Source: Mustelus asterias
Lineage: Eukaryota
Reading direction: 5' to 3'
NCBI RefSeq assembly: GCF_964213995.1
Contig: NC_135825.1
Coordinates: 12,152,001 to 12,216,000, forward strand
DNA length: 64,000 nucleotides
Shown: piece by piece, positions 1 through 60,269 of the stretch
Numbering within the stretch: position 1 is the first letter of the stretch
How the letters are laid out: every line of letters begins with the position of its first letter
Translations under genes and position numbers: made by a program
Notes under the pieces: model-generated
The model's input: the letters and a program-made list of their open reading frames with translations, nothing else
Told to the model about the DNA's origin: nothing
The model's database searches: none

Positions 1-3000
1 ATATAAACAGAATTCACAAGTCCAGACGGTCTGGAGGACCGCACCGACGCTGTGATCTCCTCAACACCGGTTGCGAAACCGGAGCAGGTGCTTGCGGTGG
101 CGTTCTTTCCAAAACAACGTCTGGCTGTCCCCTCAAGGACTCCCGGGCCGGTTGGCCCTGGTGAGGCGATGGTGCAGGGGATCCTGGAACCTTTGGTGGT
201 GGTGGTGGTGGTGATGATGGTCGCGCCGATCTCCCGAGTCTCAGGCAAGCTGTACATGGGAGTAAAAGTGTTATGCACTGGTCCCGGTGCTGACCGCGCC
301 ACGTCTCGGGAAGCAATGAGGAGTAGTGGATTCGTGACTGGGGGAATAGGAGCGACAGGAGTTGCTACGTCCCCTGCGGGCGCCAGGTCTCTAATGGAGA
401 CAGTGTCCTCTCGCCCGTCAGGATATGCCACATAGGCATACTGAGGGTTGGCGTGGAGGAGTTGGACCGGTTCGACCAAGGGGTCGGACCTGCGAGCCCT
501 CACATGTCGCCGCAGAAGGACGGGTCCTGGGTACGTCAACCAGGCTGGCAATGAGGTTCCCGAGGACATCCTCTCGTGGGGAGTAGCATTGGTTGCCGTA
601 CACAGGAGGGAGCGGATAGAATGGAGTGCCTTTGGAAGGACCTCCTGCCAACGGGAGACTGGAAGGCCCCTGGATTTCAGTGCCAGTAGGACAGCCTTCC
701 AGACTGTAGCATTCTCCCTTTCCACCTGTCCGTTACCCCTAGGGTTGTAGCTCGTGGTTCTACTAGAGGCAATCCCGAATGAGAGCAGGAATTGCCTCAA
801 GTCGTTGCTCATGAACGACGAGCCCCTGTCGCTATGAATGTAGCAGGGGTACCCGAACAGGGTAAAAAGCTCACTGAATGCCTTGATGACGGTGGCAGTC
901 GACGTGTCCGCACAGGGGACAACAAACGGAAACCGGGAATACTCGTCTATTATGTTGAGGAAATAGACATTCCGGTCCGTTGAGGGAAGGGGGCCCTTAA
1001 AATCCACACTCAGCCTCTCAAAAGGGCGAGTGGCCTTGACCAATTGTGCCCGGTCTGGTCGATAAAAGTGTGGTTTGCATTCTGCGCAAATCCGACAGCT
1101 TCTCGTCACTGACCTGACATCCTCCACCGAGTAGGGCAGGTTGCGGGCTTTGACGAAGTGGTAGAGTCTGGTGACTCCAGGATGACACAGATCATTGTGG
1201 AGAGCCTTCAAGCGGTCCTCCTGCATGATGGCGCATGTTCCGCGCGAGAGGGCATCCGAGGACTCATTGAGCTTCCCTGGACGATACATAATATCGTAAT
1301 TATAGGTGGAGAGCTCAATTCTCCACCGCAAGATCTTATCGTTCTTGATCTTGCCCCTCTGCGTGTTGCTGAACATAAACGCCACGGATCGTTGATCCGT
1401 GATCAGGGTGAACCGCTTCCCTGCCAGGTAATGGCGCCAGTGTCTGACTGCCTCCACAATGGCCTGAGCCTCCTTCTCCACCGCTGAGTGCCGAATTTCG
1501 GGGCCTTGAAGGGTGCGGGAAAAGAACGCGACGGGCCTGCCTGCCTGGTTTAGTGTGGCGGCTAGGGCGAAATCAGATGCATCACTCTCCACCTGGAAAG
1601 GGATGGATTCATCCACTGCGTGCATCGTGGCTTTCGAGATGTCGCTTTTCAAAGCCTTGAAGGCCAATTGGGCCTCCGGCGTAAGTGGGAAGGTCGTGGA
1701 CTTAATGAGCGGACGAGCTTTGTCCGCGTAGTTGGGGACCCACTGTGCATAATACGAAAAGAACCCGAGGCATCTCCTCAGTGCTTTCGTGCTAGCGGGC
1801 AAGGGAAGTTCAGTAAGTGGGCGCATACGGTCTGGATCAGGGCCAATGACCCCGTTTTCCACCACGTATCCGAGGATGGCTAACCTACGCGTACGGAATA
1901 CGCACTTCTCCCTGTTATAGGTCAGATTCAGGCGAGATGCAGTGCGCAGAAAGTGTTGGAGATTCGTGTCGTGGTCCTGCTGGTCATGGCCGCAGATGGT
2001 GATGTTATCCAGGTACGGGAAGGTAGCCCGCAACCCGTTCTGGTCCACCATTCGGTCCATAGCACGCTGGAAGACCGAGACCCCATTGGTGACACCAAAT
2101 GGAACCCTGAGGAATTGGTATAGACGACCATCCGCCTCAAAAGCCGTATATTGTCGGTCCTCTGGGCGGATGGGGAGTTGATGGTAGGCGGACTTAAGGT
2201 CTATGGTAGAAAACACTCGGTACTGCGCAATCTGATTGACCATATCAGAAATGCGCGGGAGAGGATACGCATCCAGCTGCGTATAACGATTAATGGTCTG
2301 ACTATAGTCGATGACCATCCGAGGTTTGTTCCCGCTTTTGACTACCACGACCTGCGCTCTCCACGGACTAGCACTGGCCTGTATGATCCCTTCCTTGAGG
2401 AGCCGCTGAACCTCAGATCTAATAAAGATCCGGTCCTCAGCGCTGTAACGCCTACTTTTAGTAGCGATGGGCTTGCAGCCAGGTACCAGATTTTTAAAAA
2501 GGGATGGTGTAGTGATTTTCAGGGTGGATAGATTGCATGCAGGGCGCTTTGGGCAATTTGGAGGCTGCGGCTGATTCCCTACTGCCAGTGAAGGGAGTGG
2601 CCCACCGTACTGTAGGATCACACTCTTCATGTGGACCATAAAGTTTAGTCCGAGGAGAATTGGCGCGCAAAGGTGAGGTAACACAAGGAGCCTGTATTGC
2701 TCGTAAATTGTGCCCTGTACCTCAAGAGTTACCATACATCGTCCTTGGATCGGTACAGACCGGGACCGTGATGCCATGGAAATTTTCTGCTTGGCAGGGA
2801 GAACCCGGAGTCCACACCTTTTAGCAGTTTCAGGGTGTATGAAACTTTCGGTGCTCCCACTGTCAAACAGACAATTCACAGTTCGACCACTAACCTTTAT
2901 ATCCATCATGGAATTTTCATGTCTGTAGTGCCTGGTCTGGTCCAGGGAGATCGACGCCACCGTTGGCCCCTGGGCGTCACTGCATGCTGCCGATGTGGAT

Positions 3001-4334
3001 GCTGAGGACCCCTGCTGGTCGCTCCTAGTCGTCGTGGACCATGATGGCTGCCCCCATGAATCGCACATGGGCGAGGGCGCCAAGTGCAGCGACTCCTGGT
3101 GGTCTTCCTCCTCCTCCGTCAGCCACGATGGCGCCATCCTGGGATCGCACGTGGTCGGACCTCGTGGGTACTGCGACGCTGAAGGAGATTGTCTCCGTTC
3201 TGGAGGGTTACAAGCTGCACTGCCGTTTTTAGGCTTGGACCTGCAGACTTTGCCGTAGTGGCCTTTTTTACCGCACTGGCTGCAGATTGCCGTTCTTGCC
3301 GGACACTGTTGCCGTGGATGCTTGGCCCCACCACAAAAATAGCATCGCTGGCCACCTGGAGCTGCCGCCGTCGTCGGATCGATCTGGGAGCGCGGGTTAG
3401 CGGGGCGAGGAGGGAGCTGAGCTTGCTCCAGCCACGTTGACTGCACGTGGTCCTCGGGGTACAGCGCCAAGCTCTTCGACGCCGCTTCCAGCATCACGGC
3501 CATCTCCATTGCTTGGGTCAAGTCGAGTTTCCCCTTTTCCAGCAATTTAAGCCTGATGTACGAGGACCCTACCCCTGCTACGAACGCGTCTCGGGCGAGG
3601 TCGTACATATATTGTTCGGCTGATACGTCTTTACAATCGCAACCCCTGGCAAGCTGCAGGAGCTCATTGGCGTAGTCCTCCATGGTTTCGCCCGACTGCC
3701 AACGTCGTGTAGCGAGGAGGTAACGAGCATGTATCTCGTTGGGTGGCTTCGTGTATCTTTTTTTTAGGAGCTCGACGGCACCCGGGTAAGTGGGAGCTGC
3801 ACGAATGGCGAGATAAATCATGTCGCTTACCCTTGCGTGGAGGACCTGGAGTTTATCACTGTCTGTAGTGATAGCTACTGAGGCTGCCAGGTAGTCCTCG
3901 AAACACTTCCACCAATGGTCGAATGTGTTAGCTGCACCGACCGCACGTGGGTCCAGTGTCAGACGATCCGCTTTTAAGATCTGTTCCATACTCTCTTTTT
4001 TTTTGTACAGCTGTGAGTTTTCTGTTACACAATAAAATTGATGCGCAACAATTAAGCACGTGGAACCAAGGCTTCGATATTGAAGGCTTTTATTGTGTAA
4101 CAATGGAACTACTAACACGAATACACCAGTTCAGACTGAAGGGGTCCTGCCGGAGCAGGGGGTCTTATACCTCGCCACCGGAGGCGGGACCCCACTGGAA
4201 TGTGCCATGATAACTCTTATAACAGGTAAACACCCTAACCCAACAACATTGTACAACCCCCACAGTAACAACACCCTAGCCCAACAGTAACATAATAACA
4301 ACCCTCAGTGGTGAACCAACGATGGTTCACCACA
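1..4334 (-). mobile_element. Ty3/Gypsy LTR retrotransposon, paralogous copy in gene A intron (3' end outside window)
   Basis: Near-identical to 36589-40943. 5' LTR at 4039-4334 is followed by GTTTC (4335-4339). gag-pol starts at ATG 3989 and runs off the left edge, with a 21-bp in-frame deletion at 567/568 relative to the other copy. Confidence 0.96.
4039..4334 (-). repeat. 5' LTR (296 bp) of Gypsy copy A
   Basis: TG...CA termini on the minus strand; identical by eye to 40648-40943. Confidence 0.95.
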
Positions 4335-12927: not shown

Positions 12928-14204
12928 ATAGGTTTCTAATATTCACTCCCTGATGCCTCTCTCTGGGGTAACTTGTCCGCACCATGGTGGAGCTGATATG
13001 ATCCCTGGTCATTCCTTCTTCACCCTGAATCATCTGATGTTCAAGAAATGTAGCAACCCCCGTGCTGTTTGCCTGTGACAAATTCTGTATCAATGCTGAT
13101 CTTCTCACTGCTGCAAACATAGCTCTGCATTTGGTATCTGACACCTATTGTACATTCACAGGGTTTCTGTCTCACACCACCCTGAGGATAGCAACACATT
13201 TTTCTTGCAGATTCAAACCATGAACATTGCAAGTTGCAGCAAACATGAAGCCACATTTATTTCCAATGTCAATCTCTCTCTTTGCCTTTCTCATCAACCG
13301 TTAAAGAATTTGAGGAGTTAATGGAATATTGCTGTAAATTGGTGCTTATTTAGGATGGAGTCGTCACTCACAGAATTCCATACTCAATAAAAAATGATCA
13401 AACATTGGAATCATTTGGAAAATTCAGAACTCTGATTACAATCTGTTACACGTGGGTAAGAACTTCACTCTGAGTAAATCTAAAGTTAGGACTCTCACTG
13501 ACCACAGCCTTGGGTGGAGAAACATGTTTATTTTTTATTATTAACTCATTTGTGGAATCAGCAACAACAGCAATAACTTTCTCTTTATAAAGTACCTTTC
13601 ACTCAGCAAAACCTCCTCCGACATTTTACAGGAATGTCATCAGGCAAGTGTTGCTGCTGAGGCAAAGATTAGAGGGGGGGAGGGGGGGGCGATTCTCCCA
13701 TTCCGACCCGTGAAGTTTTGGGCGCGTCGGGTTGGGAGATGTGCGTGTCGGCCATTTCGCGGGATCCCCGCGAGCGTTTACGACCCACGCGCATCTCCCA
13801 ACCGGAAAAAAAATGGCACCGTTGGGACCGCGCTGAAAACCGGCCTACCACTAATTTGCATCACTTACCATGCTTTCGCATGCTATTATTGGGAGTTACT
13901 GGCTGCTTTTTACATCTCCTCCATTAGCTTTGAGAAAATGGGGGATCTTTCTTAAACCCCCCTGACTTAATGTAATTGTAACATTTAACAATTAATTAGC
14001 CATTAAACGGGCCACAGAATGTTCAGTCTCGTCACATCAGCCTCCCTGGCCCAGAATGTGAACAATTATACACTCTGGAGTTTCACTCTCTCCTGTATTG
14101 AATTATTGACCTGGATTTTCCAATGAGAGGAACGGCGAAGGTTAACAACCATTCACTGTTATTATGGAGTAAATGAGGCGGTAAAGAGGGTACGCATGTG
14201 CAAT

Positions 14205-15372: not shown

Positions 15373-16436
15373 TTCTGAAATGTACAAGTTGTGGCTCTAA
15401 TTCCCCAGTTTCCCCAGAGGCTGTTCTATGCTGATACCTCACTGATAGAGGCAGCATGGAAACTGATGTAAAGACATGGGCCTGAATTTTATATCCTCCA
15501 AGGTCCAAGCAGGAGCTGAATGGGGCGGACTCGCCAGTCAGTCAGTGCTAGCATCAGAGAGGATGGTGGATACAATTGACAGGGGGAGAAGGGTCATGAG
15601 GCAGGGATGGTCCCTTTCAATAGTGCAGTGCTCCATGGGCAGATGATGCCAACAATCCAGTCCTCCAACACTGGCATACAGACAGGGAAATCCCAGTTGT
15701 CCCACCATGTGACCTGTTCATTATTGGAGATTTTAAAATTTGTTCAGGAACTTAAAAAATTGTTTTATTGTTATTTAGTTTTCATGGGAAATGAGTATTG
15801 CTGGCGAAGACAGCATTCATTCCCCATCATTAATTTCCCTTGACAAGGTGGGGGTATGCCACTGTCTTGTACAGCAAGAAATGCAGCAACCCCCGTGCTG
15901 TTTGCCTGTGACAAATTCTGTGTCAATGCTGATCTTCTCACTGCTGCAAACACAGCTCTGCATTTGGTATCTGACACCTATTGTACATTCACAGGGTTTC
16001 TATCTCACACCACCCGGAGGATAGCAACACATATTTCTTGCAGTTTCAAACCATGAACATTGCAAGTTGCAGCAAACATGAAGCCACATTTATTTCCAAT
16101 GTCAATCTCTCTCTTTGCCTTTCTCATCAACCGTTAAAGAATTTGAGGAGTTAATGGAATATTGCTGGAAATTGGTGCTTATTTAGGATGAAGCCGTCAC
16201 TCACAGAATTCTATACTCAATAAAAAATGATCAAACATTGGAACCATTTGGAAAATTCAGAACTCTGAGTTCAATCTGTTACACGTGGGTAAGAACTTCA
16301 CTCTGAGTAAATCTAAAGTTAGAACTCTCATTGACCACAGCCTTGGGTGGAGAAACATGTTCATTTTTTATTATTAACTCATTCGTAGAATCAACAACAA
16401 CAGCAATAACTTGTTCTTTTTAAAGTGCCTTTCACT

Positions 16437-16755
16437 CATAGAATTTTGCAGTGCAGATGGAGGCCATTTGGTCCATCAAGCCGACACAATGCCACCCAGA
16501 TCCTATCCCCATAACTCCACATATTTGCCCTGCTGATCCCCTGACATAATGGGGCAATTTAACTTGGGCAATGAATCTAACCTTCACATCTTTGGATTGT
16601 GGGATGAAACCGGAGCGCCTGGAGGAAATTCACACAGACCACGGGGAGGGAATTGTGCAAACTCCACACTGCCAGTCACCCAAGTTCGGAATTGAACCTG
16701 GGCACCTGGCACTGTGAGGCAGCAGTGCTAACCACTGTGCCACCGTACTGCCCGG
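16437..16755 (-). mobile_element. HE1/V-SINE-like SINE (paralogue ~53403-53721)
   Basis: Minus strand reads ggcagtacggtggcacagtggttagcactgctgcctcacagtgccaggtgcccaggttcaattcc (A and B boxes), then the V-like domain and tail. Confidence 0.88.
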
Positions 16756-17204
16756 TAAAACCTCCTCAGGCATTTTATGACATCAGACAAGTGCTGTTGC
16801 TGAGGCAAAGATTAGATCAAAGAGACTGGTCAGTTTTAGGGAGAGGTTGGTGGAGTTTTGAATCGAGACAATTGGAAACATTTCTGTTCGCGATGTGGTG
16901 AAGACTTGGAAATACACGAGAAGCCACGGCTGGGGAACATAAGATTCGCAGAAACATTTGTAAAGATGGGGACTGACGAGACCATGGAGAAATTTGAATA
17001 GGAGAATGAGAATTTAATATTGAGTTTATTTGATTTTGGGAACCACTCAATGAGCACATACACATGAGTGAAGGGCACCCGACAGGTATCACAACAATAT
17101 GTCATGTGAGATATGGAATAACACTCTTTAAATTTATCACCTGGACAGATATGCGCTGAAACTCATTAAAGGGGCTTTTGCCGAGCAAAGTCACGACATA
17201 CAAA

Positions 17205-18745
17205 CACACAAATTAGGAACAGGAGGAGGCCATTCAGCCCCTCATGCCTAATTTGTCATTCAATAATATCATGACTGATCTGATTGTGACCTCAACTTTA
17301 TATCCCACTGACCCTGACAATCATTGACTTCCTTGTTAGTCTAGAATCTTCCAAGCCTCATCTGAAAAATATTTTTTGACCCTGCCTCCACCACCCTCTG
17401 TGAAAGAGAGTTCCAAAAATTCACAACCCTCTCAGAGAAAATAAATCTTCTCATCTCTGTCTTCAATGGGAGAAACCTTATATTGAAATGGTGTCGGTGA
17501 GTTGTAGCGTCTCTCAGCATCCACCCTGTCATGTCCTCCATTAGGGACCAAACCAGACACTCCAAGGTGTTTCATAAAGTTAGCCGAGACCCAAAGTTTT
17601 AGATTTGATTTTGGAATTAGGGTGAGCATAAGTTGTTTTACTCCAGGTATGATTCAAGTGACCCACGAGGAAACTTTAGTCAAAACTAACTTTATTTAAG
17701 AAACAGTTAGAATAGAGCAAAAAAGAATTAGCATAACTTTTACCAAGTAAAATACTTAAACATGACAAAGTATAATTTTTACAAGCTAGCTATCGCTATT
17801 GTTCCAATTTAGCACATCCCCCAGTGAGACATAAATCCCATCTTGAGAAACAGTTCGCAAAGAAAGCAAATATGCTTCATGAACACTTGGTTTCCAGCCT
17901 TTTAATACCTCTCGACAAACATCAGGACAGCACTTTCTAGAGAAGGATATATTCCAAACAACAGAACTTCAGAGAAGTAAACCTAATCTGTGGCAACTCC
18001 CAGTCTTCAGACTTCAGAATTGGAAATGGATTCCTCACTCTGCAGCTTCCAAAACATCACCTTCTCAGAGAAAGAGACTTGTTTCCTGGCAAATTCCAGT
18101 CTCCAACTTCAGAGAGGGAAACTGAAAGGCACTACTCTCTAACAACTCAAAGCAGAATTTGACTTGATCTTTCTGTGTAAACCTAGCTCCACCTAGTGAT
18201 ACGACTGTACCTATCACTTAACCTAATCAAGCCCTACTCTGCAAAACCCCAGGGGCCCACTGAAAATCAAACAGAAAAACATTAGTCCAGATTAAAACAA
18301 ACATCCTTGCAATTAGGAGCAATTATGCTGCTGCAGTAACAACATATGGCTGCTGGACAAAGCGGCATGGATAACAAAAAGAATCTGCGAAAACAGACCT
18401 GCATAAGAAACGTAACAATACATTCCTTAATTCACAATATTTTCACATGAGCCAATCCTCTATCCATGCCAGAATATTCCCTACAAAACCATCTTGCGTA
18501 TTAACATTTTGTATGGTACCTTATCAAATGCCTTTTGAAAATCCAAATATACAACGTCGACTGGTTCTCCTCTATCTACTCTGATTGATACCTCCTCAAA
18601 GAACTCTAGTAAATTTGCCATTCATGACTTTCCCTTCATGAACCCAATCTGACTCTGCCTGATCACATTATAACTTTCCAAAGGCCCTGATAGTCTCTCC
18701 TTAATAATTGATTCTGACATTTATCCAACAACTAAATTTAAACTA
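17205..18745 (-). mobile_element. Decayed CR1 pieces (17205-17530, ~18448-18745) separated by a ~0.9-kb unrelated segment, possibly a solo LTR
   Basis: CR1 3' end (EMRRFIFSERVVNFWNSL) and an RT piece (ggtaccttatcaaatgccttttgaaaatccaa). The middle segment starts TGT, ends ACA and has a minus-strand AATAAA, but I found no TSD. Confidence 0.55.
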
Positions 18746-19654
18746 ATCCAGGGAATTTCCCATCCTGAGGTTATACAGGCGCATTGTTCCATCCTGGGAA
18801 AGTGGAATATATCATTGGAGCGACTGGTATCCAGTGCATGGAAAAATCATGTTGCCAATTCCCTCCAGAATTTGTTCATCTTTAAATTGACAAAGATTAA
18901 GATAAGAATATGAAACAAGAAATGTAGACATTTAATCAGCAAACAGATCAATTATTCTCCAGATGTCGATATACAACCTGAAGGTCACAGCCACTGTTTG
19001 GATTTTGATTCCTCCACTAAATGTTTGATCCAAATCATGTTGGTTGGTTTTTGTTTTTTTATTAGTGTCACAAGTCGGCTTACATTAACACTGCAATGAA
19101 ATTACTGAGAAAATCCCCCAGTCGCCACACTCCGGCGCCAGTTCGGGTCAACTGAACAAGAATTCAGCATGGCTAATGCACCCGAACCAACACATCTTTC
19201 AGACTTCATTTAATGATGATAAAACATACTATAAAGTAGATTTGTTAAAAGAAATGTTCAAAGCTGGATGAGGATTGAATATTTGACCAGGATGCAAAAT
19301 TGCTTCGATGTAGATGGAATGCCAGAATCTTCATTTTCCCACTTTGGTCCAACTGTGAGAATTGGATTCATTGAGTGACTGGAAAAGAAAATCATCAGAT
19401 TCATTGAGACTGGGAGAACAATGCATCAATTGACATTTCAGTCTTGAACAGAATTCTGGAAATGGCAACAATTTGGGGCAGTTTCGAGATCACATTGATC
19501 GCCCTTTGCATGTGCGCTGGGAAACACTCGTTTGGATCCTTCATGAAGACACATAACCTTATTTCCCCACAGAAAACCAATGTTCCCCTGCAGCTGTGAT
19601 TACGGACAATTGACTGAAGAAATTGATTGTTATGTCCATGTTTCTAAAAATATT

Positions 19655-19816
19655 TTATACAGTCCAGTTGGTGCTTCCAGCAACAACATCATTGGGTCTG
19701 TGTCTCAGCCTCTTACTGCTATCTGCATAATTTGAAATCTCTTCCAGTTCCTGTCCAGAAACAGTCAGCCCTGTTGCCTTTTTATAGCCTTTCCAATTTC
19801 CTTCCTTATTCTTTTG
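19655..19816 (-). CDS. Gene B predicted last coding exon: cytoplasmic tail (QKNKEGNWKGYKKATGLTVSGQELEEISNYADSSKRLRHRPNDVVAGSTNWTV*)
   Basis: Acceptor cttattaaactgtcag|CAA; phase 0 matches the TM exon; open for 53 codons to TAA; conserved in paralogue C. An internal AG at 19751 and an internal gtaag donor are alternative boundaries. Confidence 0.55.
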   Translation of the reverse strand, partial: QKNKEGNWKGYKKATGLTVSGQELEEISNYADSSKRLRHRPNDVVAGSTNWTV

Positions 19817-20319
19817 CTGACAGTTTAATAAGATTGGATGATAAGATGGAAGGGTTCTTCCATGGATGGGTTACACAGGAACACAGCAACAAGAGCAGCT
19901 CATTCAGCCCCTCGAGCCTGTCACACCAACCTGCAACTCCACACAGACACTCACCCAAGGCCAAAATCGAACCTGGGTCCCTGTCTTATCTAATCCCAGC
20001 TGTGAGAATTCTAATTGGCCCAGCATCCACAGATTTTAGGATGGATTAGTTCCAGATTTCCATGACTAGCTGTGTGAAAATAATACTTCCTAATTTCACT
20101 CCTAAGTATCTAAGCCCTCACTTTTGGGTTATGGCCCCGTGTACTCCATCTCCCCACTGGGCAAAGAGTTTCTCTGTACCCACCATACTGAATCCCATAA
20201 AAACTTCAATCACCGATCCCAGCAACCTCCAAGTGTGAGGAAATGCAGCAAAGTTGTGCAATCTCTGCACATAATTTACTCCATTTTCCCTGTATCATTC
20301 TGATGTATTGATATTGCAG

Positions 20320-20755
20320 AGATGATGGTTTAGTGTCAATGTCACTGGGCTAGTAATCCAGAGGCTGATAGTAAAGTGCTGGGAACATGATTTCAACATA
20401 GTAGCTGGTGGAATATAAATGCAATGAATTCAAATTCAATTGATGAATCAATCTGGAATTGAAAATCTGACCAATGGTGGCCAGGAAGCTTGTCATCAAT
20501 TGCTGTAAAAACCCATCTGGTTGGTTGGAGATGGTGATAAACTGTCATAAATTGTCATAAATCCTCACTAATATCCTTCAGGGAAGGATATCTATTTTCC
20601 TTATGCAGTCTGACCTCCATGTGACCCCAGACCCACCGCGATGTGTTTGATTCCTAACTGTCTTCTGAAATGGCCGAGCAAGCCACTCGGATCTGGCAAT
20701 TAGGGATGGGCAACAATTCTGCCCTTGCCAGTGACGTCCACATCCCGTGAAATAG
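20320..20755 (+). mobile_element. Degenerate tRNA-head SINE, related to 34860-35235 (paralogue ~57290-57720)
   Basis: Shares atctggaatt...aaaacccatctggtt...ctgaaatggcc...ggatgggcaa blocks with 34860-35235. Confidence 0.6.
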
Positions 20756-21382
20756 AACAAAAAGACACTGCATCCCTTCCGAGGCCAATATTTTGTTCCT
20801 GTGATTCGGACACCATCCAGAACAAACAATTCAACATTGCATTATAAAATCCTCCAGTGATAAAGTGAAACTTCCATTTATGAGTGGAAGTTATCCTGGA
20901 CAAAGACAGCTGATCACTTCAGGATGGATGCAGCTGCAACAAGGATCAGGAACATTGACACAATCGAAAACAAACAGTCCCCTTGATCTTTCCTCCATAA
21001 CATCAGCAACACTTCAGAACCAAACCATATAATCTGTAAGATACTTTGGGTGGACTTTCCACCCAAGTTCCTCTGGAAGGTGGGTGCGGGAGGAGGGGGG
21101 AGGGGGCTGGACAAGAGCAGAAGATCTCGCGAGAGCCCCAATATTACTTTGATGGGAAGTCTCTTTGTGATTGTCCCCAGCTCCCATCACTGACTTCACA
21201 GGATTCCCAACGTTGAACAACATAATCAATTTGCATGTCATTATCAAGACCCGGCACCTGATCAACCCCCGCTCCCCCCACACCCCCCAACCCTCACTTC
21301 CACTGTTCGATGATCCACTCATGTCAGTGTGAGGGCACACTGGTGTGCATTATGATTGATGGCCATGGCATGTACCAGGAGG

Positions 21383-21569
21383 AAGAGTTTTAACAACACC
21401 TGGTTAAAGTCCAACAGGTTTATTTGGTAGCAAATACCATTAGCTTTCAGAGCGCTGCTCCTTCATCAGATGGAGTGGGAATTTGCGCTCAAACAGGGCA
21501 CAGAGACACAGAATCAAGTTACAGAATACTGATTGGAATGCGAATCCCAAAGCCAACCAGATCTTAAAG
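21383..21569 (-). mobile_element. Penelope-like element pLTR fragment (187 bp) with 9-bp TSD ACCAGGAGG
   Basis: Homologous to the termini of the GIY-YIG-bearing element at 58359-59301; flanked by accaggagg at 21374-21382 and 21570-21578. Confidence 0.8.
21437..21473 (-). ncRNA. Minimal type I hammerhead ribozyme motif within the Penelope pLTR
   Basis: Minus strand: CCAU-CUGAUGA-A-GGAGC-AGC-GCUCU-GAAA-GC-UA-AUGG. Stem I CCAU/AUGG, intact core CUGAUGA/GAAA, stem II GGAGC/GCUCU, palindromic AGCU helix III, UA cleavage site. Confidence 0.7.
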
Positions 21570-21632
21570 ACCAGGAGGGCAGACCCACTGGAGATGCTCA
21601 GGTGAGTGCATCGCTCAAAGTTACTGTCAAGG

Positions 21633-22520
21633 GGCAGTGTCCATTCAGTGCCAGGGGTCAGTGCCAGGGCAGTGCCCATGCTGTGCCAGTGGTCAGTGCC
21701 AGTGTCAGTGTCCATTCAGTGCCAGGGGTCAGTGCCAGGGCAGTGCCCATGCTGTGCCAGTGGTCAGTGCCAGTGTCAGTGTCCATTCAGTGCCAGGGGT
21801 CAGTGCCAGGGCAGTGCCAATGCTGTGCCAGTGGTCAGTGCCAGTGTCAGTGTCCATGCAGTGCCAGGGGTCAGTGCCAGGGCAGTGCCCATGCTGTGCC
21901 AGTGGTCAGTGCCAGTGTCCATGCAATGCCAGGGGTCTGTGCCAGTGTCAGTGTCCATGCAGTGCCAGGGGTCAATGCTGGGGCAGTGTCCATGCAGTGC
22001 CAGTGGTCAGTGCCAGTGTCAGTGTCCATGCAGTGCCAGGGGTCAATGCTGGGGCAGTGTCCATGCAGTGCCAGTGGTCAGTGCCAGTGTCAGTGTCCAT
22101 GCAGTGCCAGGGGTCAATGCTAGGGCAGTGTCCATGCAGTGCCAGTGGTTAGTGCCAGTGTCAGTGTCCATGCAGTGCCAGGGGTCAGTGCCAGGGCAGT
22201 GCCGATGCTGTGCCAGTGTTCAGTGCCAGTGTCAGTGTCCGTGCAATGCCAGGGGTCAGTGCCTGTGTCAGTGTCCATGCGGTGCCAGGGGTCAGTGCCT
22301 GTGTCAGTGTCCATGCAGTGCCAGGGGTCAGTGCCAGTGTCCATGCAGTGCCAGTGGTCAGTGCCAGTGTCAGTGTCCATGCAGTACCAGGGGTCAATGC
22401 TAGGGCAGTGTCCATGCAGTGCCAGGGGTTAATGCTGGGGCAGTGTCCATGCAGTGCCAGTGGTCAGTGCCAGTGTCAGTGTCCATGCAGTGCCAGGGGT
22501 CAATGCCAGAGGCAGTGTCG
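21633..22520 (+). repeat. CAGTGC-based composite minisatellite (~885 bp)
   Basis: Tandem variants of CAGTGCCAGGGGT / CAGTGCCAGTGT / CAGTGTCCATG. Confidence 0.95.
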
Positions 22521-22876
22521 GGGGATGGGGGGGGCGGGGGGGGGGGGGGGGTGCATGAGGTTGTGCAAGGGGAGGGGGCTTCCGTTTTCACTTTTGTGCA
22601 TCAAGTTGACTTTCAAAAATATCATTTTGATCTTGAAGAAACTGAAATTTCTGGTGGGATGGGCAGTATCCTGTCCCTTCAACATTTATACACATATTCT
22701 TCACCATATTTCTTCACCGCCTCTTTTCCCGCCCCTGCCACACTTGGAAATGAAAGGTAAAATTCCCCCCTGTGTTTAGTCCTGTGGACATTGACATCAG
22801 TGCAAGTTTCTCTGCACAATATCTGTGATAATTACAAAGTGCTCAGAATGATTGTTGTAAAGTTCATAATCCTCAC

Positions 22877-22976
22877 CTGAGATTTTCTCGTGTACCATGT
22901 GACCGAAATCACACAAATCACCAGGAGGGTAAAGAGCCCCCAGCGAATCACATTCCAGATGAAGGAACTGAGCAAA
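22877..22976 (-). CDS. Gene B transmembrane exon (SLLSSFIWNVIRWGLFTLLVICVISVTWYTRKSQ)
   Basis: Acceptor tgtatttcttccag|TTTG and donor CAG|gtgagg; 100 nt, phase 2-0, matching the stalk exon. Hydrophobic span with an intramembrane Arg followed by an RK stop-transfer. Confidence 0.85.
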
Positions 22977-25014
22977 CTGGAAGAAATACAGAATGATTTG
23001 AAGGGAATGAGGCAGCTTCGTGTTTGGAACATTAATCTCCTCTTTACACTGTGACCTATTGTAGCAGCGTCGCACAGACAAGGCACGTTAGCTGGAGCAA
23101 TCAACTAAAGTTTCACTGATCAACTTCATGATCATTAGATACAGATCAAATGGAGCTGGTTTCATTAACTTTCCTCAGTATATCTGGAATGCTGAGTAAA
23201 ATCTTAGAAGTAAGAATGTTATGAATTGACTGGTCATTGGGACAGAAACATTGTCTGGTGCAACATAACATTGGTGAGATATCTGTTCAGTGAGTAAGAA
23301 ACTTCCAATAACATCATCCCACACTGTTCCAAAGTAGAATCATATTCCACTCAATATTAACTCTGCTCCTCTCTTCACAGATGCTACCGGACCTGCTGAG
23401 TTTTCCCAGCACTTTCTGTTTTCATCATCCCACAATTCCCTGGTGCACCTCCTGACAGGAAATTCGGAACCAGCCGGAAGCAGACGGCCTCAGTTTGGGA
23501 ACAATGTATTAAACTGGGCAACTGAGAAGGAGAAGATGACAGTGAATGCAATGTTCCTGTCAGCGATACTCCAGAACACACCGGGTTAAGGGAATCTGGC
23601 ATCGCTGGAGTGTGACAAACACAACTCCATGAGATTGGGTTCACGGTGAAGTGATTAACATGAATAATGAAAACTGCACCATCTAAGGTGTGGCAAACAG
23701 AGAAAGCTCACTTCTTAGTCTGAACTTCCACTGACAGAAACAGCAACTTTGTTAGGAAGCTAACACAATACCATTATGTAAACACAGCTACCGGGTGGGA
23801 TGGTGAGCCCGGGTTGGGGGACCACAGGAATGCTGATGGGGATTCAATATCTGGCAAAACCTGGAAGGCGCAGGCGACTTCATCAGATTCACGGCCATAG
23901 TGGGCAAGAACCTGATTTACATACATTTTAATATATTTCCATATCATTAAAGACCCCCCCACTCCCCAGATATTGAGCCCTCGCTGTGTTTTCAAACCGG
24001 GGCAACGTGACATCACATTGGTGCATTTTACAACAGGTTCACCTGGACATGATGGGGAACCCCCTTCCTGGGCAAGAGGGATATGGTCAGGCAGTGGCCT
24101 GGCAATGCCCTCTGGCACTCTCCCTTGGCGCAGGTTGGCACTGCCAAGTTGGCACCATGCCACCCCAACATTGCCAACCTGGTAGTGCCAACCTGTACCA
24201 GTGGCAGTTCCGGGGTGGACCTCAGTGGGAGTCTGATGGGGGAGGGGTTATTCATTTACAAGTGAGGGTGGGCCGGAGCGGACAGGGGAGCTGGAGCAGC
24301 CGTTTGTGGGAAGGGGCTGGGTTTGTCGGCAATGGCTGTGTGGGTGGAGGGTTGGAGGGAAGGGCTCCAATGTTCGGGGGGAAGGGGGGTGGTGCCAGCA
24401 CTGACTGCTGGAGGGGGGGAAAGGTCTGATATTCGGGGGAGGGGTTTGGTGTCAGCACTGACTGCTGAGGGGTGATGTGGGGGGAGAATTGCTGGCTCAT
24501 AATAGGAGGATGCCCCGACTCTGACCGGGGTGTGGTGGGATTTGGGGGGAGCCCCTGAGAGCTCTGTGGTGGGTGGGGGGGAGGTTACATTTAGTTTTGA
24601 TTGGGCCGCCATGTTTGTGCACTGTCAGCTTACTGCAGCCAGGATTTGCTGGTGTATCGAGGCCCCGCCCCCTACATGACGATGTGAAGCACGCCCAGCT
24701 GTTTTTTTTGTGACAGAGTGTGGTAAGTTCTGGAGAGAAAGACAACCTGCTTCGAGCCAGAACCAACAGTTTTCAGTAAGATTTCCCTAATATTGTGTTT
24801 TATGTTTACGGGGGCTGTTTACAGATTCAGCTTTATTCTGGAGGCAGTCGGTGTATCAGTAAAACATTCAGTTCAGATGCTGGGAGAGCAGGATAATGGC
24901 TCATTTTAGCCATGGAGGGGGGAAGCTAAGCAAAAAATGACTGTTGTTTCCGGTGAGAAAACCGACAGGTGTCTCTCCAGAGAAACAGGTTAGATTTCTG
25001 TGCAGATCTTTGAC

Positions 25015-36240: not shown

Positions 36241-36536
36241 TGATGCGTGACAATTAAGCACGTGGAACCAAGGCTTCGATATTGAAGGCTTTTATTGTGT
36301 AACAATGGAACTACTAACACGAATACACCAGTTCAGACTGAAGGGGTCCTGCCGGAGCAGGGGGTCTTATACCTCGCCACCGGAGGCGGGACCCCACTGG
36401 AATGTGCCATGATAACTCTTATAACAGGTAAACACCCTAACCCAACAACATTGTACAACCCCCACAGTAACAACACCCTAGCCCAACAGTAACATAATAA
36501 CAACCCCCAGTGGTGAACCAACGATGGTTCACCACA
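36241..36536 (-). repeat. 3' LTR
   Basis: Direct repeat of 40648-40943, preceded on the minus strand by the PPT. Confidence 0.96.
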
Positions 36537-36548
36537 TTCACCCCTCCT

Positions 36549-39500
36549 TTAAGAACAAAAGGTGGCGGGGTGCAAGAAAAAACAGGTCATATAAACAGAA
36601 TTCACAAGTCCAGACGGTCTGGAGGACCGCACCGACGCTGTGATCTCCTCAACACCGGTTGCGAAACCGGAGCAGGTGCTTGCGGTGGCGTTCTTTCCAA
36701 AACAACGTCTGGCTGTCCCCTCAAGGACTCCAGGGCCGGTTGGCCCTGGTGAGGCGATGGTGCAGGGGATCCTGGAACCTTTGGTGGTGGTGGTGGTGGT
36801 GATGATGGTCGCGCCGATCTCCCGAGTCTCAGGCAAGCTGTACATGGGAGTAAAAGTGTTATGCACTGGTCCCGGTGCTGACCGCGCCACGTCTCGGGAA
36901 GCAATGAGGAGTAGTGGATTCGTGACTGGGGGAATAGGAGCGACAGGAGTTGCTACGTCCCCTGCGGGCGCCAGGTCTCTAATGGAGACAGTGTCCTCTC
37001 GCCCGTCAGGATATGCCACATAGGCATACTGAGGGTTGGCGTGGAGGAGTTGGACCGGTTCGACCAAGGGGTCGGACCTGCGAGCCCTCACATGTCGCCG
37101 CAGAAGGACGGGTCCTGGGTACGTCAACCAGGCTGGCAATGAGGTTCCCGAGGACGACTTCCGAGGGAATGAGAACATCCTCTCGTGGGGAGTAGCATTG
37201 GTTGCCGTACACAGGAGGGAGCGGATAGAATGGAGTGCCTTTGGAAGGACCTCCTGCCAACGGGAGACTGGAAGGCCCCTGGATTTCAGTGCCAGTAGGA
37301 CAGCCTTCCAGACTGTAGCATTCTCCCTTTCCACCTGTCCGTTACCCCTAGGGTTGTAGCTCGTGGTTCTACTAGAGGCAATCCCGAATGAGAGCAGGAA
37401 TTGCCTCAAGTCGTTGCTCATGAACGACGAGCCCCTGTCGCTATGAATGTAGCAGGGGTACCCGAACAGGGTAAAAAGCTCACTGAATGCCTTGATGACG
37501 GTGGCAGTCGACGTGTCCGCACAGGGGACAACAAACGGAAACCGGGAATACTCGTCTATTATGTTGAGGAAATAGACATTCCGGTCCGTTGAGGGAAGGG
37601 GGCCCTTAAAATCCACACTCAGCCTCTCAAAAGGGCGAGTGGCCTTGACCAATTGTGCCCGGTCTGGTCGATAAAAGTGTGGTTTGCATTCTGCGCAAAT
37701 CCGACAGCTTCTCGTCACTGACCTGACATCCTCCACCGAGTAGGGCAGGTTGCGGGCTTTGACGAAGTGGTAGAGTCTGGTGACTCCAGGATGACACAGA
37801 TCATTGTGGAGAGCCTTCAAGCGGTCCTCCTGCATGATGGCGCATGTTCCGCGCGAGAGGGCATCCGAGGACTCATTGAGCTTCCCTGGACGATACATAA
37901 TATCGTAATTATAGGTGGAGAGCTCAATTCTCCACCGCAAGATCTTATCGTTCTTGATCTTGCCCCTCTGCGTGTTGCTGAACATAAACGCCACGGATCG
38001 TTGATCCGTGATCAGGGTGAACCGCTTCCCTGCCAGGTAATGGCGCCAGTGTCTGACTGCCTCCACAATGGCCTGAGCCTCCTTCTCCACCGCTGAGTGC
38101 CGAATTTCGGGGCCTTGAAGGGTGCGGGAAAAGAACGCGACGGGCCTGCCTGCCTGGTTTAGTGTGGCGGCTAGGGCGAAATCAGATGCATCACTCTCCA
38201 CCTGGAAAGGGATGGATTCATCCACTGCGTGCATCGTGGCTTTCGAGATGTCGCTTTTCAAAGCCTTGAAGGCCAATTGGGCCTCCGGCGTAAGTGGGAA
38301 GGTCGTGGACTTAATGAGCGGACGAGCTTTGTCCGCGTAGTTGGGGACCCACTGTGCATAATACGAAAAGAACCCGAGGCATCTCCTCAGTGCTTTCGTG
38401 CTAGCGGGCAAGGGAAGTTCAGTAAGTGGGCGCATACGGTCTGGATCAGGGCCAATGACCCCGTTTTCCACCACGTATCCGAGGATGGCTAACCTACGCG
38501 TACGGAATACGCACTTCTCCCTGTTATAGGTCAGATTCAGGCGAGATGCAGTGCGCAGAAAGTGTTGGAGATTCGTGTCGTGGTCCTGCTGGTCATGGCC
38601 GCAGATGGTGACGTTATCCAGGTACGGGAAGGTAGCCCGCAACCCGTTCTGGTCCACCATTCGGTCCATAGCACGCTGGAAGACCGAGACCCCATTGGTG
38701 ACACCAAATGGAACCCTGAGGAATTGGTATAGACGACCATCCGCCTCAAAAGCCGTATATTGTCGGTCCTCTGGGCGGATGGGGAGTTGATGGTAGGCGG
38801 ACTTAAGGTCTATGGTAGAAAACACTCGGTACTGCGCAATCTGATTGACCATATCAGAAATGCGCGGGAGAGGATACGCATCCAGCTGCGTATAACGATT
38901 AATGGTCTGACTATAGTCGATGACCATCCGAGGTTTGTTCCCGCTTTTGACTACCACGACCTGCGCTCTCCACGGACTAGCACTGGCCTGTATGATCCCT
39001 TCCTTGAGGAGCCGCTGAACCTCAGATCTAATAAAGATCCGGTCCTCAGCGCTGTAACGCCTACTTTTAGTAGCGATGGGCTTGCAGCCAGGTACCAGAT
39101 TTTTAAAAAGGGATGGTGTAGTGATTTTCAGGGTGGATAGATTGCATGCAGGGCGCTTTGGGCAATTTGGAGGCTGCGGCTGATTCCCTACTGCCAGTGA
39201 AGGGAGTGGCCCACCGTACTGTAGGATCACACTCTTCATGTGGACCATAAAGTTTAGTCCGAGGAGAATTGGCGCGCAAAGGTGAGGTAACACAAGGAGC
39301 CTGTATTGCTCGTAAATTGTGCCCTGTACCTCAAGAGTTACCATACATCGTCCTTGGATCGGTACAGACCGGGACCGTGATGCCATGGAAATTTTCTGCT
39401 TGGCAGGGAGAACCCGGAGTCCACACCTTTTAGCAGTTTCAGGGTGTATGAAACTTTCGGTGCTCCCACTGTCAAACAGACAATTCACAGTTCGACCACT

Positions 39501-40598
39501 AACCTTTATATCCATCATGGAATTTTCATGTCTGTAGTGCCTGGTCTGGTCCAGGGAGATCGACGCCACCGTTGGCCCCTGGGCGTCACTGCATGCTGCC
39601 GATGTGGATGCTGAGGACCCCTGCTGGTCGCTCCTAGTCGTCGTGGACCATGATGGCCGCCCCCATGAATCGCACATGGGCGAGGGCGCCAAGTGCAGCG
39701 ACTCCTGGTGGTCTTCCTCCTCCTCCGTCAGCCACGATGGCGCCATCCTGGGATCGCACGTGGTCGGACCTCGTGGGTACTGCGACGCTGAAGGAGATTG
39801 TCTCCGTTCTGGAGGGTTACAAGCTGCACTGCCGTTTTTAGGCTTGGACCTGCAGACTTTGCCGTAGTGGCCTTTTTTACCGCACTGGCTGCAGATTGCC
39901 GTTCTTGCCGGACACTGTTGCCGTGGATGCTTGGCCCCACCACAAAAATAGCATCGCTGGCCACCTGGAGCTGCCGCCGTCGTCGGATCGATCTGGGAGC
40001 GCGGGTTAGCGGGGCGAGGAGGGAGCTGAGCTTGCTCCAGCCACGTTGACTGCACGTGGTCCTCGGGGTACAGCGCCAAGCTCTTCGACGCCGCTTCCAG
40101 CATCACGGCCATCTCCATTGCTTGGGTCAAGTCGAGTTTCCCCTTTTCCAGCAATTTAAGCCTGATGTACGAGGACCCTACCCCTGCTACGAACGCGTCT
40201 CGGGCGAGGTCGTACATATATTGTTCGGCTGATACGTCTTTACAATCGCAACCCCTGGCAAGCTGCAGGAGCTCATTGGCGTAGTCCTCCATGGTTTCGC
40301 CCGACTGCCAACGTCGTGTAGCGAGGAGGTAACGAGCATGTATCTCGTTGGGTGGCTTCGTGTATCTTTTTTTTAGGAGCTCGACGGCACCCGGGTAAGT
40401 GGGAGCTGCACGAATGGCGAGATAAATCATGTCGCTTACCCTTGCGTGGAGGACCTGGAGTTTATCACTGTCTGTAGTGATAGCTACTGAGGCTGCCAGG
40501 TAGTCCTCGAAACACTTCCACCAATGGTCGAATGTGTTAGCTGCACCGACCGCACGTGGGTCCAGTGTCAGACGATCCGCTTTTAAGATCTGTTCCAT
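36549..40598 (-). CDS. Gag-Pol polyprotein, single ORF of 1349 aa from MEQILK
   Basis: Two CX2CX4HX4C knuckles (CYFCGGAKHPRQQC, CSQCGKKGHYGKVC), protease LFDSGS, RT (IDLKSAYHQ, VPFGVTNG, YLDN), RNase H (SDAS, EKEAQA, TDQ, SDALSR), integrase HHCC and D-D-E (VDFKG, SDRGSSF, VERENAT). No chromodomain seen. Confidence 0.95.
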   Translation of the reverse strand: MEQILKADRLTLDPRAVGAANTFDHWWKCFEDYLAASVAITTDSDKLQVLHARVSDMIYLAIRAAPTYPGAVELLKKRYTKPPNEIHARYLLATRRWQSGETMEDYANELLQLARGCDCKDVSAEQYMYDLARDAFVAGVGSSYIRLKLLEKGKLDLTQAMEMAVMLEAASKSLALYPEDHVQSTWLEQAQLPPRPANPRSQIDPTTAAAPGGQRCYFCGGAKHPRQQCPARTAICSQCGKKGHYGKVCRSKPKNGSAACNPPERRQSPSASQYPRGPTTCDPRMAPSWLTEEEEDHQESLHLAPSPMCDSWGRPSWSTTTRSDQQGSSASTSAACSDAQGPTVASISLDQTRHYRHENSMMDIKVSGRTVNCLFDSGSTESFIHPETAKRCGLRVLPAKQKISMASRSRSVPIQGRCMVTLEVQGTIYEQYRLLVLPHLCAPILLGLNFMVHMKSVILQYGGPLPSLAVGNQPQPPNCPKRPACNLSTLKITTPSLFKNLVPGCKPIATKSRRYSAEDRIFIRSEVQRLLKEGIIQASASPWRAQVVVVKSGNKPRMVIDYSQTINRYTQLDAYPLPRISDMVNQIAQYRVFSTIDLKSAYHQLPIRPEDRQYTAFEADGRLYQFLRVPFGVTNGVSVFQRAMDRMVDQNGLRATFPYLDNVTICGHDQQDHDTNLQHFLRTASRLNLTYNREKCVFRTRRLAILGYVVENGVIGPDPDRMRPLTELPLPASTKALRRCLGFFSYYAQWVPNYADKARPLIKSTTFPLTPEAQLAFKALKSDISKATMHAVDESIPFQVESDASDFALAATLNQAGRPVAFFSRTLQGPEIRHSAVEKEAQAIVEAVRHWRHYLAGKRFTLITDQRSVAFMFSNTQRGKIKNDKILRWRIELSTYNYDIMYRPGKLNESSDALSRGTCAIMQEDRLKALHNDLCHPGVTRLYHFVKARNLPYSVEDVRSVTRSCRICAECKPHFYRPDRAQLVKATRPFERLSVDFKGPLPSTDRNVYFLNIIDEYSRFPFVVPCADTSTATVIKAFSELFTLFGYPCYIHSDRGSSFMSNDLRQFLLSFGIASSRTTSYNPRGNGQVERENATVWKAVLLALKSRGLPVSRWQEVLPKALHSIRSLLCTATNATPHERMFSFPRKSSSGTSLPAWLTYPGPVLLRRHVRARRSDPLVEPVQLLHANPQYAYVAYPDGREDTVSIRDLAPAGDVATPVAPIPPVTNPLLLIASRDVARSAPGPVHNTFTPMYSLPETREIGATIITTTTTTKGSRIPCTIASPGPTGPGVLEGTARRCFGKNATASTCSGFATGVEEITASVRSSRPSGLVNSVYMTCFFLHPATFCS

Positions 40599-40647
40599 AC
40601 TCTCTTTTTTTTTGTACAGCTGTGAGTTTTCTGTTACACAATAAAAT

Positions 40648-56783: not shown

Positions 56784-58358
56784 CTGACAGTTTAATAAGA
56801 TTGGATGGTAAGATGGAAGGGTTCTTCCATGGATGGGTTACACAGGAACACAGTAACAAGAGCAGCTCATTCAGCCCCTCGAGCCTGTCACACCAACCTG
56901 CAACTCCACACAGACACTCACCCAAGACCAAAATCGAACCTGGGTCCCTGTCTTATCTAATCCCAGCTGTGAGAATTCTAATTGGCCCAGCATCCACAGA
57001 TTTTAGGATGGATTAGTTCCAGATTTCCATGACTAGCTGTGTGAAAATAATGCTTCCTAATTTTACTCCTAAGTATCTAAGCCCTCACTTTTGGGTTATG
57101 GCCCCGTGTACTCCATCTCCCCACTGGGCAAAGAGTTTCTCTGTACCCACCATACTGAATCCCATAAAAACTTCAATCACCGATCCCAGCAACCTCCAAG
57201 TGTGAGGAAATGCAGCAAATTTGTGCAATCTCTGCACATAATTTACTCCATTCTTCCCTGTATCATTCTGATGTATTGATATTGCAGAGATGATGGTTTA
57301 GTGTCAATGTCACTGGGCTAGTAATCCAGAGGTTGATAGTAAAGTGCTGGGAACATGATTTCAACATAGTAGCTGGTGGAATATAAATGCAATGAATTCA
57401 ATTTCAATTGATGAATGAATCTGGAATTGAAAATCTGACCAATGGTGACCAGGAAGCTTGTCATCAATTGCTGTAAAAACCCATCTGGTTGGTTGGGGAT
57501 GGTGATAAACGGTCATAAATTGTCATAAATCCTCACTGATATCCGTCAGGGAAGGATATCTGTTTTCCTGATGCAGTCTGACCTCCATGTGACCCCAGAC
57601 CCACCGTGATGTGTTTGATTCCTAACTGTCTTCTGAAATGGCCGAGCAAGCCACTCGGATCTGGCAATTAGGGATGGGCAACAATTCTGCCCTTGCCAGT
57701 GACGTCCACATCCCGTGAAATAGAACAAAAAGACACTGCATCCCTTCCGAGGCCAATATTTTGTTCCTGTGATTCGGACACCATCCAGAACAAACAATTC
57801 AACATTGCATTATAAAATCCTCCAGTGATAAAGTGAAACTTCCATTTATGAGTGGAAGTTATCCTGGACAAAGTCAGCTGATCACTTCAGGATGGATGCA
57901 GCTGCAACAAGGATCAGGAACATTGACACAATCGAAAACAAACAGTCCCCTTGATCTTTCCTACATAACATCAGCAACACTTCAAAACCAAACCATATAA
58001 AATGTAAGATACTTTGGGTGGACTTTCCACCCAAGTTCCTCTGGTGGGGTGAGGGAGGGAGGAGGGCGGAGGGGGCTGGACAAGAGCAGAAGATCTCGCG
58101 AGAGCCCCCAATCATGTTATTACTTTGATGGGAAGTCTCTTTGTGATTGTCCCCAGCTCCCATCACTGACATCACAGGATTCCCAACGTTGAACAACATA
58201 ATCAATTTGCATGTCATTATCAAGACCTGGCACCTGATCAACCCCCGCTCCCCCCACACCCCCCAACCCTCACTTCCACTGTTCGATGATCCACTCACAT
58301 CAGTGTGAGGGCACACTGGTGTGCATTATGATTGATGGCCATGGCATGTACCAGGAGG

Positions 58359-59301
58359 AAGTCTCACAACACCAGGTTAAAGTCCAACAGGTTTATTTGG
58401 TAGCACAAGCCACTAACTTTTGGAGCGCTGCCCCTTCATCAGGAGAGTGGGAGTTCTGTTCACAAACAGGGCATATAAAGAGACAAACTCAATTTACAAA
58501 ATAATTGTTGGAATGGGAGTCTTTACAGATAATCAAGTCTTAAAGGTACAGACAAGGTGAGTGGAGAGAGGGTTAAGCACAGGTTAAAGTGATGTGTATT
58601 GTCTCCAGCCAGGACCACCAGTTACACGGTACATACTCTTGCAACTCGGCCAACGTTGTCTACCTGATACGCTGCAGGAAAGGATGTTCCGAGGCATGGT
58701 ACATTGGGGAGACCATGCAGACACGATGACAACGGATGAATGAACAATGCTCAACAATTGCCAGGTAAGAGTGTTCTCTTCCTGTTGGGGAGCACTTCAG
58801 CAGTCACAGGCATTCGGCCTCTGATCTTCGGGTAAGCGCTCTCCAAGACGGCCTACATTACACACGACAGCGCAGAGTCGCTGAGCACAGACTGGTAGCC
58901 AAGTTCCGCATACAGGAGAACGGCCTCAACCGGGATCTTGGGTTCATGTCACACTATCTGTAACCCCCATGACTTGCCTGGGCTTGCAAAATCTCACTAA
59001 CTGTCCTGGCTGGAGACAATACATATCTCTTTAACCTGTGCTTAACCCTCTCTCCACTCACATTGTCTGTACCTTTAACACTTGATTACCTGTAAAATCT
59101 CACATTCCAACCATTATTTTGTAAATTGAGTTTGTCTCTTTATATGTCCTGTTTGTGAACAGAACTCCCACCTCCCTGATGAAGGGGCAGCGCTCCGAAG
59201 ACCAGTGTCTTGTGCTACCAAATAAACCTGTCAGACTTTAAGCTAGTGTTGTGAGATTCCTTACTGTGTTTACCCCAGTCCAACGCCCTCATCTCCACAG
59301 T
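58359..59301 (+). mobile_element. Penelope-like element, 5'-truncated with an inverted pLTR and GIY-YIG remnant; 13-bp TSD
   Basis: Plus strand ~58640-58963 translates CNSANVVYLIRCRKGCSEAWYIGET...GEHF...NGLNRDLGFMSHYL* (with stops), a GIY-YIG endonuclease C-terminal part. Arms 58359-58615 and 59003-59258 are inverted. TSD ATGTACCAGGAGG at 58346-58358 and 59302-59314. Confidence 0.9.
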
Positions 59302-59369
59302 ATGTACCAGGAGGGCAGACCCACTGCAGATGCTCAGGTGAGTGCATCGCTCAAGTTACTATCAAGGAG

Positions 59370-60169: not shown

Positions 60170-60269
60170 CTGAGATTTTCTCGTGAACCATGTGACCGAA
60201 ATCACACAAATCACCAGGAGGGTAAAGAGCCCCCAGCGAATCACATTCCAGATGAAGAAACTGAGCAAA
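60170..60269 (-). CDS. Gene C transmembrane exon (SLLSFFIWNVIRWGLFTLLVICVISVTWFTRKSQ)
   Basis: Same splice sites as 22877-22976; two non-synonymous changes. Confidence 0.85.

Follow-up and report, generated by a model that had tools for sequence, protein, structure and literature searches.

The window analysed here, 64,000 nucleotides of Mustelus asterias DNA, holds a tandem duplication with a unit of approximately 36.6–37.3 kb. On its minus strand, each unit carries a leader, four immunoglobulin exons (V, C2, V and C2) and a transmembrane exon. The array exons are 99–100% identical to the M. asterias NCBI proteins LOC144511684 and LOC144511685, and their named relatives are pIgR-like proteins and a modular domain immune-type receptor. 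The NCBI models of these two loci comprise at least five near-identical modules, omit the leaders and transmembrane exons and join several units into one protein of 1254–1458 aa, which is probably an annotation fusion. One leader was found per unit (10780 and 47389), and both transmembrane exons encode an arginine within the hydrophobic stretch. A false duplication of alleles was considered and rejected in view of the number of near-identical modules in the two loci; an allelic reading would, besides, leave the same puzzle.

The two units differ by approximately 0.1% over 1–10.5 kb (13/10499 sites) and 24–26.7 kb (3/2708). Within an island of some 7.5 kb (roughly 16–23.5 kb) around the insertion site described below, divergence is approximately 2.4%, equivalent to 1.0–1.4% per lineage, and coming from the right it climbs toward the site through 0.2, 1.0, 1.4 and 3.0% in successive 500-bp bins. 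The island takes in the receptor gene's 3' part together with the transmembrane exon, and the immunoglobulin exons are near identical. Its left edge coincides with the second copy of a 564-bp internal duplication (13042–13605 and 15875–16438, 96% identity). The insertion site itself lies 1.3–1.5 kb downstream of the donor of the transmembrane exon, and a minisatellite starts approximately 55 bp from it. The last cytoplasmic exon of the host receptor gene was not found, so that an intronic position and one 3' of the gene are both conceivable for the site; the locus is probably neutral non-coding DNA, and nothing points to an effect on the receptor gene.

Elsewhere in the window, a Gypsy-type LTR retrotransposon (36241–40943) with LTRs of 99% identity holds an open frame of 1396 codons on the minus strand (36549–40739) that encodes protease, RT, RNase H and integrase; from 36589 onward it recurs at 1–4334 in the other unit. 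A stretch of 354 bp present only in the second unit (49701–50054) is AT-rich, followed by a part that by eye resembles a LINE 3' end with short tandem repeats, and a 4-base direct repeat marks its ends. Rfam returned four weak microRNA matches, none of them within the inserts. All features relevant to the insertion site are collected in Table 1.

Table 1. Features at and around the shared insertion site in the two array units (positions in the window).
Feature	Position	Strand	Remark
Divergence island between units, 1–3.6%	16000..23500	.	~52960–60800 in other unit; limits approximate
Left copy, 9-bp duplication	21374..21382	+	end of 13-mer 21370–21382; shared left junction after 21382
Insert 1: tail-less, 5'-truncated 3' part of pLTR	21383..21569	-	different lineage from insert 2
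Hammerhead-like core boxes, insert 1	21445..21469	-	read by motif pattern; no Rfam match, folding not significant
Right copy, 9-bp duplication	21570..21578	+	
36/71-bp minisatellite	21633..22519	.	59370–59806 in other unit; length differs between units
Host transmembrane exon, pIgR-like receptor unit	22877..22976	-	~60170–60269 in other unit; open in both
Left copy, 13-bp duplication	58346..58358	+	
Insert 2: inverted tail-less pLTR arm (257 bp), less decayed	58359..58615	-	
Insert 2: 5'-truncated C-terminal GIY-YIG endonuclease region	58616..58963	+	two in-frame stops and own stop codon
Insert 2: direct pLTR (right arm), more decayed	59003..59259	+	hammerhead-like boxes ~59176–59200
Insert 2: 42-nt tail, this end only	59260..59301	+	
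Right copy, 13-bp duplication	59302..59314	+	

The initial annotation had described two inserts that occupy the same nucleotide in the two units, and their coordinates, lengths and duplications were confirmed. Insert 1 (21383–21569, 187 bp) is flanked by two copies of ACCAGGAGG (a 9-bp duplication), insert 2 (58359–59301, 943 bp) by two copies of ATGTACCAGGAGG (13 bp), and each begins directly after CAGGAGG. The left junction is thus identical in both units, and at its far end the duplication is displaced by 4 nt; the shift of at most 1 nt that defines a precise parallel insertion holds for the left junction and is exceeded at the far end. Both left junctions fall on the pLTR/tail boundary, with a distance of 3 nt between them in element coordinates, and the first three bases are common to both inserts despite the different registers. 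These are the only two inserts of the family in the window, where blastn (word size 7) and nhmmer found no further copy of either subfamily. The empty site is absent from the window, and we infer it from the filled copies. An 8-bp palindrome (21362–21369) abuts the start of the 13-bp duplicated target.

Insert 1 is the counterpart of the first 187 bp of insert 2's inverted left arm. Of the 183 sites aligned between them, 39 differ (21.3%, with 4 gaps in addition); compared with the right arm, 45 of 185 sites differ (24.3%). The flanks of the two units differ far less, on the left at 2/100, 16/500 and 127/5381 sites with increasing distance and on the right at 3/65 (plus one indel) and 21/1001, and the contrast between the insert and its nearest 500 bp of flank is strong (Fisher p = 1e-12). 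The earlier description of homologous inserts that are much more diverged than their surroundings therefore holds (21% vs 2–3%). The opposite outcome, an insert divergence similar to that of the flanks, was looked for and not seen, and a simple deletion from a single insertion is rejected on these values. The differences between the inserts fall mostly upstream of the hammerhead-like core (33/100 vs 11/84, p = 0.002), and the longest identical run is 31 nt (p = 0.001), a pattern that would fit two constrained, functional lineages and not local hypermutation. A lone insertion that later underwent deletion and local hypermutation is consequently regarded as highly improbable, and so is an assembly error: the differences track the constraint pattern of the element, and an assembly chimera has no donor within the window. 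What speaks in their favour is that the end of insert 1 aligns exactly within the left arm, where a short match to the right duplication is close by; the 4 bases that the left arm shares with the right duplication are two bases away from insert 1's right junction.

Insert 2 consists of an inverted tail-less pLTR arm, a truncated GIY-YIG region, a direct pLTR and a 42-nt tail. According to PMC3846280 and PMC8557442, EN+ Penelope-like elements (PLEs) carry a pLTR, often with an inverted copy at the 5' end, and a tail of 30–40 nt at one end, and the arrangement of insert 2, with two inverted arms of 257 bp each and an extension of 42 nt on the right arm only, is this typical layout. The endonuclease fragment itself has no Pfam match; it is 81% identical over its length to a protein with a Pfam GIY-YIG domain (E 2e-5, 25 bits, cut-off 22.6) and 74% identical to an RT-bearing shark protein that ends in GIY-YIG. 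Two cysteines before YIG and one downstream histidine are retained and another conserved histidine is changed, with the assignment of the histidines to the endonuclease motif judged by eye. The telomerase-like RT is absent from both truncated copies, and RVT_1 was found in the relatives P0130 and P0139. The closest named relatives of insert 2 are M. asterias proteins of 78–80% identity, and all four relatives that were read contain a CX4CxxC linker, which has the CX2-5CxxC form placed before the endonuclease in the Neptune/Nematis clades and is truncated away in insert 2; the inserts are tentatively classed as Neptune-type. According to PMC8557442, Neptune/Nematis-type EN+ PLEs share the C-terminal GIY-YIG, the 5' truncation, the inverted 5' pLTR, the one-ended tail and the short variable duplication with insert 2, and the linker with its closest relatives. 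Insert 2 departs from them in its missing RT and linker, which is due to truncation, and in two arms of different age.

All three pLTR pieces contain boxes that resemble the hammerhead core pattern, with folding z-scores of −0.4 to −1.3 that are not significant, and the Rfam hammerhead models gave no match at E values up to 1. With a view to a subfamily consensus, insert 1 was also compared with spurious protein predictions, with five weak matches and none above 37% identity where an identity was reported; these matches were set aside. A tblastn search with 158 proteins gave 20 alignments near pLTR parts, one of which, a weak match (E 0.07), touched insert 1, and the pLTR motif had 0 matches among the prokaryotic genomes scanned. 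Taken together, the sequence comparisons support the view that both inserts are Penelope-like and belong to different sequence lineages, as had been proposed along with the misfit of a plain deletion; the target preference or homing put forward in the same annotation found no support, as discussed below.

Insert 2 is not uniform in age. Its two arms, 387 bp apart, differ at 25 of 257 sites (9.7%). With insert 1 as the outgroup, 22 of these differences are covered, 14 derived in the right arm, 4 in the left arm and 4 unclear (p = 0.03), and two read-through proteins, each used as an outgroup of its own, agree with the left arm in 10 of the 12 codons that differ, with the right in 1 and with neither in 1 (p = 0.012). 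Clustered changes in the arms are not fully independent, and if events are counted instead of sites, a rough count of 10 vs 4 remains (p = 0.18). The left arm has decayed at 4 of 184 sites (~2%; 95% interval 0.6–5.5%), which would fit the flank split of 1.0–1.4% per lineage. The body carries 19 changes at 256 non-synonymous sites (7.4%) relative to the majority of eight M. asterias relatives, which are annotated ORFs and may thus favour intact copies or partly represent a sister subfamily. This is approximately six times the per-lineage divergence of the flanks and differs from an expected decay of 1.2% (Poisson p = 8e-10) as well as 2.4% (2e-5). The endonuclease region shows 13 residues found in none of 15 relatives, together with two stops, and its amino-acid distance to the majority of the others is 16%, compared with 3–14% for the relatives. 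The tail of insert 2 is visibly altered, too. With a body decayed by about 7% and a left arm by about 2%, the 943-bp element appears to be a chimera of old and young sequence. Hence, as to whether both elements are younger than the split of the locus, the left arm agrees and the body does not, which points either to two templates in one event or to two events at different times. This anatomy with arms of uneven age is what is new here and the part most worth a genome-wide look.

Twin priming is a known mechanism of L1 insertion (PMC2837659), and the resemblance is worth considering. Twin-primed L1 copies likewise show an inverted truncated piece at the 5' end within a single pair of duplications. 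Both cDNAs of insert 2, in contrast, cover the same pLTR, which one truncated RNA could not supply twice, and together with the asymmetric 9.7% difference this again implies two templates or two times. Another comparison is Poseidon of Anolis carolinensis, a PLE of another clade studied in vitro (PMC11167929): the anole protein starts reverse transcription at both ends of the tail, cuts and extends both target strands and is predicted to form a dimer. The junctions of the present inserts likewise lie at two start sites bounding the tail. With these properties, both left junctions could be read as priming from one top-strand nick, a step that is carried over from the other clade. Poseidon differs in that it prefers AT-rich DNA with ATT and starts without homology to the target, whereas the site here is G+C-rich.

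On this basis, we consider two independent target-primed insertions at one top-strand nick, the longer one primed from both strands on two RNAs, to be the leading explanation, with a probability of roughly 0.5; this and all other weights given here are our own judgement. Two target-primed reverse transcription events would have used the same nick after CAGGAGG in the lineages of the two array units, at an originally empty site and around or after the split of the units (~1.2% divergence per lineage). For unit 1, the scheme proposes that the top strand, once nicked, primed cDNA at the internal start site of an RNA from one subfamily, and that this cDNA stopped after 187 nt and joined 9 nt upstream. 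Insert 1 has the appearance of a common truncated insertion, and its duplication falls within the 8–10 bp described for rotifer PLEs (PMC3846280). In unit 2, a cut with a 13-nt stagger would have allowed both strands to prime cDNA, the top strand from the internal start site of a fresh RNA to give the left arm and the bottom strand from the tail end of a second RNA, transcribed from an already decayed family member, to give the body, whereupon both cDNAs would have been joined head to head. The decayed template was added to this scheme because the body would otherwise be too old. PMC3846280 reports that in a rotifer the pLTR sequence alone was enough for mobilisation in trans, and this, together with non-autonomous derivatives described in a preprint (bioRxiv 10.64898/2026.07.22.740005), offers a precedent for the in-trans use of a decayed copy.

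The favoured scheme thus needs one rare coincidence plus the in-trans use of a decayed copy. For mammals, PMC10531181 and PMC8230782 give frequencies, which concern other elements and time spans, of 0.01–0.04% in primates and 0.18–0.29% in toothed whales for precise parallel insertion, with precise deletion (0.003%) and subfamily-changing conversion (0.0004–0.0006%) being rarer still. The unequal lengths of the duplications argue only weakly for independent insertion, because a replacement could inherit part of an older 13-bp copy. Against the favoured scheme stands the body, which, had it aged where it now lies, would long predate the flank split; moreover, the altered tail gives no sign of selection as a good template, and the sequence revealed no reason for the shared nick.

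The age of the body could also be explained if two insertions had taken place independently and long ago, in units of ancient separation, and the flanks of these units had later been homogenised up to both junctions by gene conversion and unequal crossing-over. This would require no decayed template, and it would suit an array that is homogenising or recently duplicated (0.1% over most of the unit) and the increase in divergence toward the site from the right. However, the flanks are not older beside the junction: the first mismatch occurs at 60 bp, after 59 clean bp, with 4 in 200 bp, and flanks as old as the arms are disfavoured (p = 3e-5). Without a divergence peak at the junction, the homogenised tracts would have to end within approximately 60 bp on both sides, and the young left arm would stay unexplained, which makes these old insertions improbable. 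Both forms of independent insertion together have a slightly better than even chance.

The main competitor, somewhat less probable than the leading explanation, is replacement, in which an old element would have resided in the ancestor of both units, to be removed in the lineage of unit 1, where a relative took its place; in unit 2, the left arm would have been refreshed or added later. Independent insertion and replacement had been proposed as the alternatives from the outset and are indeed the right pair, between which the window cannot choose. A body (7.4%) much older than flanks that are young up to the junction would be accounted for directly by replacement, and the three shared first bases, with the pairing that they allow at the target, also suit it. 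The target end pairs with the tail start of insert 2 at 5 of 7 bases, so that the inverted repeat gains 7 bp into the flank; 1018 of 73162 positions (1.4%) equal this value in a test made after the match had been seen. For insert 1, the corresponding value is 2 of 7 in the observed register, assuming the same tail, and with the three shared first bases the end pairs with the tail start at 5 of 7. One read-through protein hints, as a single weak indication, that beyond the tail the element may run on into the same three bases with which the right duplication starts. The position of the right junction of insert 1 near the 4-base match of left arm and right duplication is likewise in line with replacement. 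Inverted arms may favour DNA breaks, and those of insert 2, with their length and spacing, could do so here.

As to the route, a PLE protein may have re-cut the ends of the resident copy and primed on a new RNA, a break at the inverted arms may have undergone templated repair, or an insertion may have occurred at the target regenerated behind the right duplication, with the old element then lost between the 13-bp repeats. For PLE endonucleases, cutting within the element's own pLTR or tail region has been reported (PMC11167929), and whole-element conversion is documented for Alu, with 14 of 52 oriented AluS/AluY cases (PMC8230782). On the other side, replacement requires a further event for the young left arm, and conversion plus deletion, or insertion plus precise excision, multiplies two rare events. 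Insert 1 holds no remnant of insert 2 despite a 31-nt identical block near the junction, a natural crossover point, and conversion is stated there to be most efficient at 89–100% identity, compared with 79% here (PMC8230782). Ordinary gene conversion is the least likely form of replacement, because insert 1 keeps no insert 2 sequence beyond the three shared first bases and a separate deletion would be required. The marks of a subfamily change by conversion are not seen: the right boundary and the duplication differ, and no hybrid stretch exceeds three bases. The Alu cases of PMC8230782 are similar in that a different subfamily lies at a homologous site with intact flanks, and dissimilar in that here identity is 79%, the lengths are 756 bp apart, the right duplication is 4 bp shorter and no hybrid occurs.

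A more far-reaching and doubtful idea is that PLE proteins re-target resident copies of their family, cutting at the pLTR end and writing a new cDNA over the old one. If so, one locus would have been overwritten on two occasions, both times starting at the shared junction: its own subfamily would have supplied the young left arm on an old body, and a sister subfamily would have wiped out the body. Such homing-like turnover of resident copies would also account for inverted pLTRs that are younger than the element they flank.

Neither a target preference of the GIY-YIG endonuclease nor homing-like behaviour, suggested originally as the reason for the shared site, finds support in the window: the site has 60–65% G+C, it is not a microsatellite, and within the window it occurs only in the two array units. 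No ATT lies within 20 bp of the site, and a preference for AT-rich or microsatellite DNA is not seen there. The one full-length PLE protein tested, from a different clade, prefers AT-rich DNA (PMC11167929), and for Neptune a microsatellite bias has been proposed (PMC8557442). A location within a host repeat was considered and discarded, as within the window the flanks find a match in the two units alone.

For mammalian SINEs, insertion at the same site and replacement of one subfamily by another are already known. In primates and toothed whales, parallel insertions likewise brought distinct elements to one nucleotide of homologous loci, the junction being shared (PMC10531181); the present case differs in that paralogous array units of one genome, a GIY-YIG PLE, no empty-site outgroup and no defined consensus target are involved. 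A search of open-licence papers and preprints found neither a case of two PLE subfamilies that share one nucleotide nor a description of target sites of PLEs in sharks. Both PLE target choice and the formation of inverted pLTRs are still open according to PMC8557442 and PMC11167929. If young insertions often showed arms 5–10% apart with the inverted arm being fresher, inverted pLTRs would originate from a second RNA or from later rewriting. Either outcome cautions against dating PLE copies by arm divergence and against using them as homoplasy-free markers in sharks.

Pieces of this PLE's endonuclease or pLTR were also noted in several annotated shark host proteins, among them septin 5a and XRCC5 (P0137, P0142, P0147, P0148, P0150, P0158), where they are either exonised repeats or annotation artefacts.
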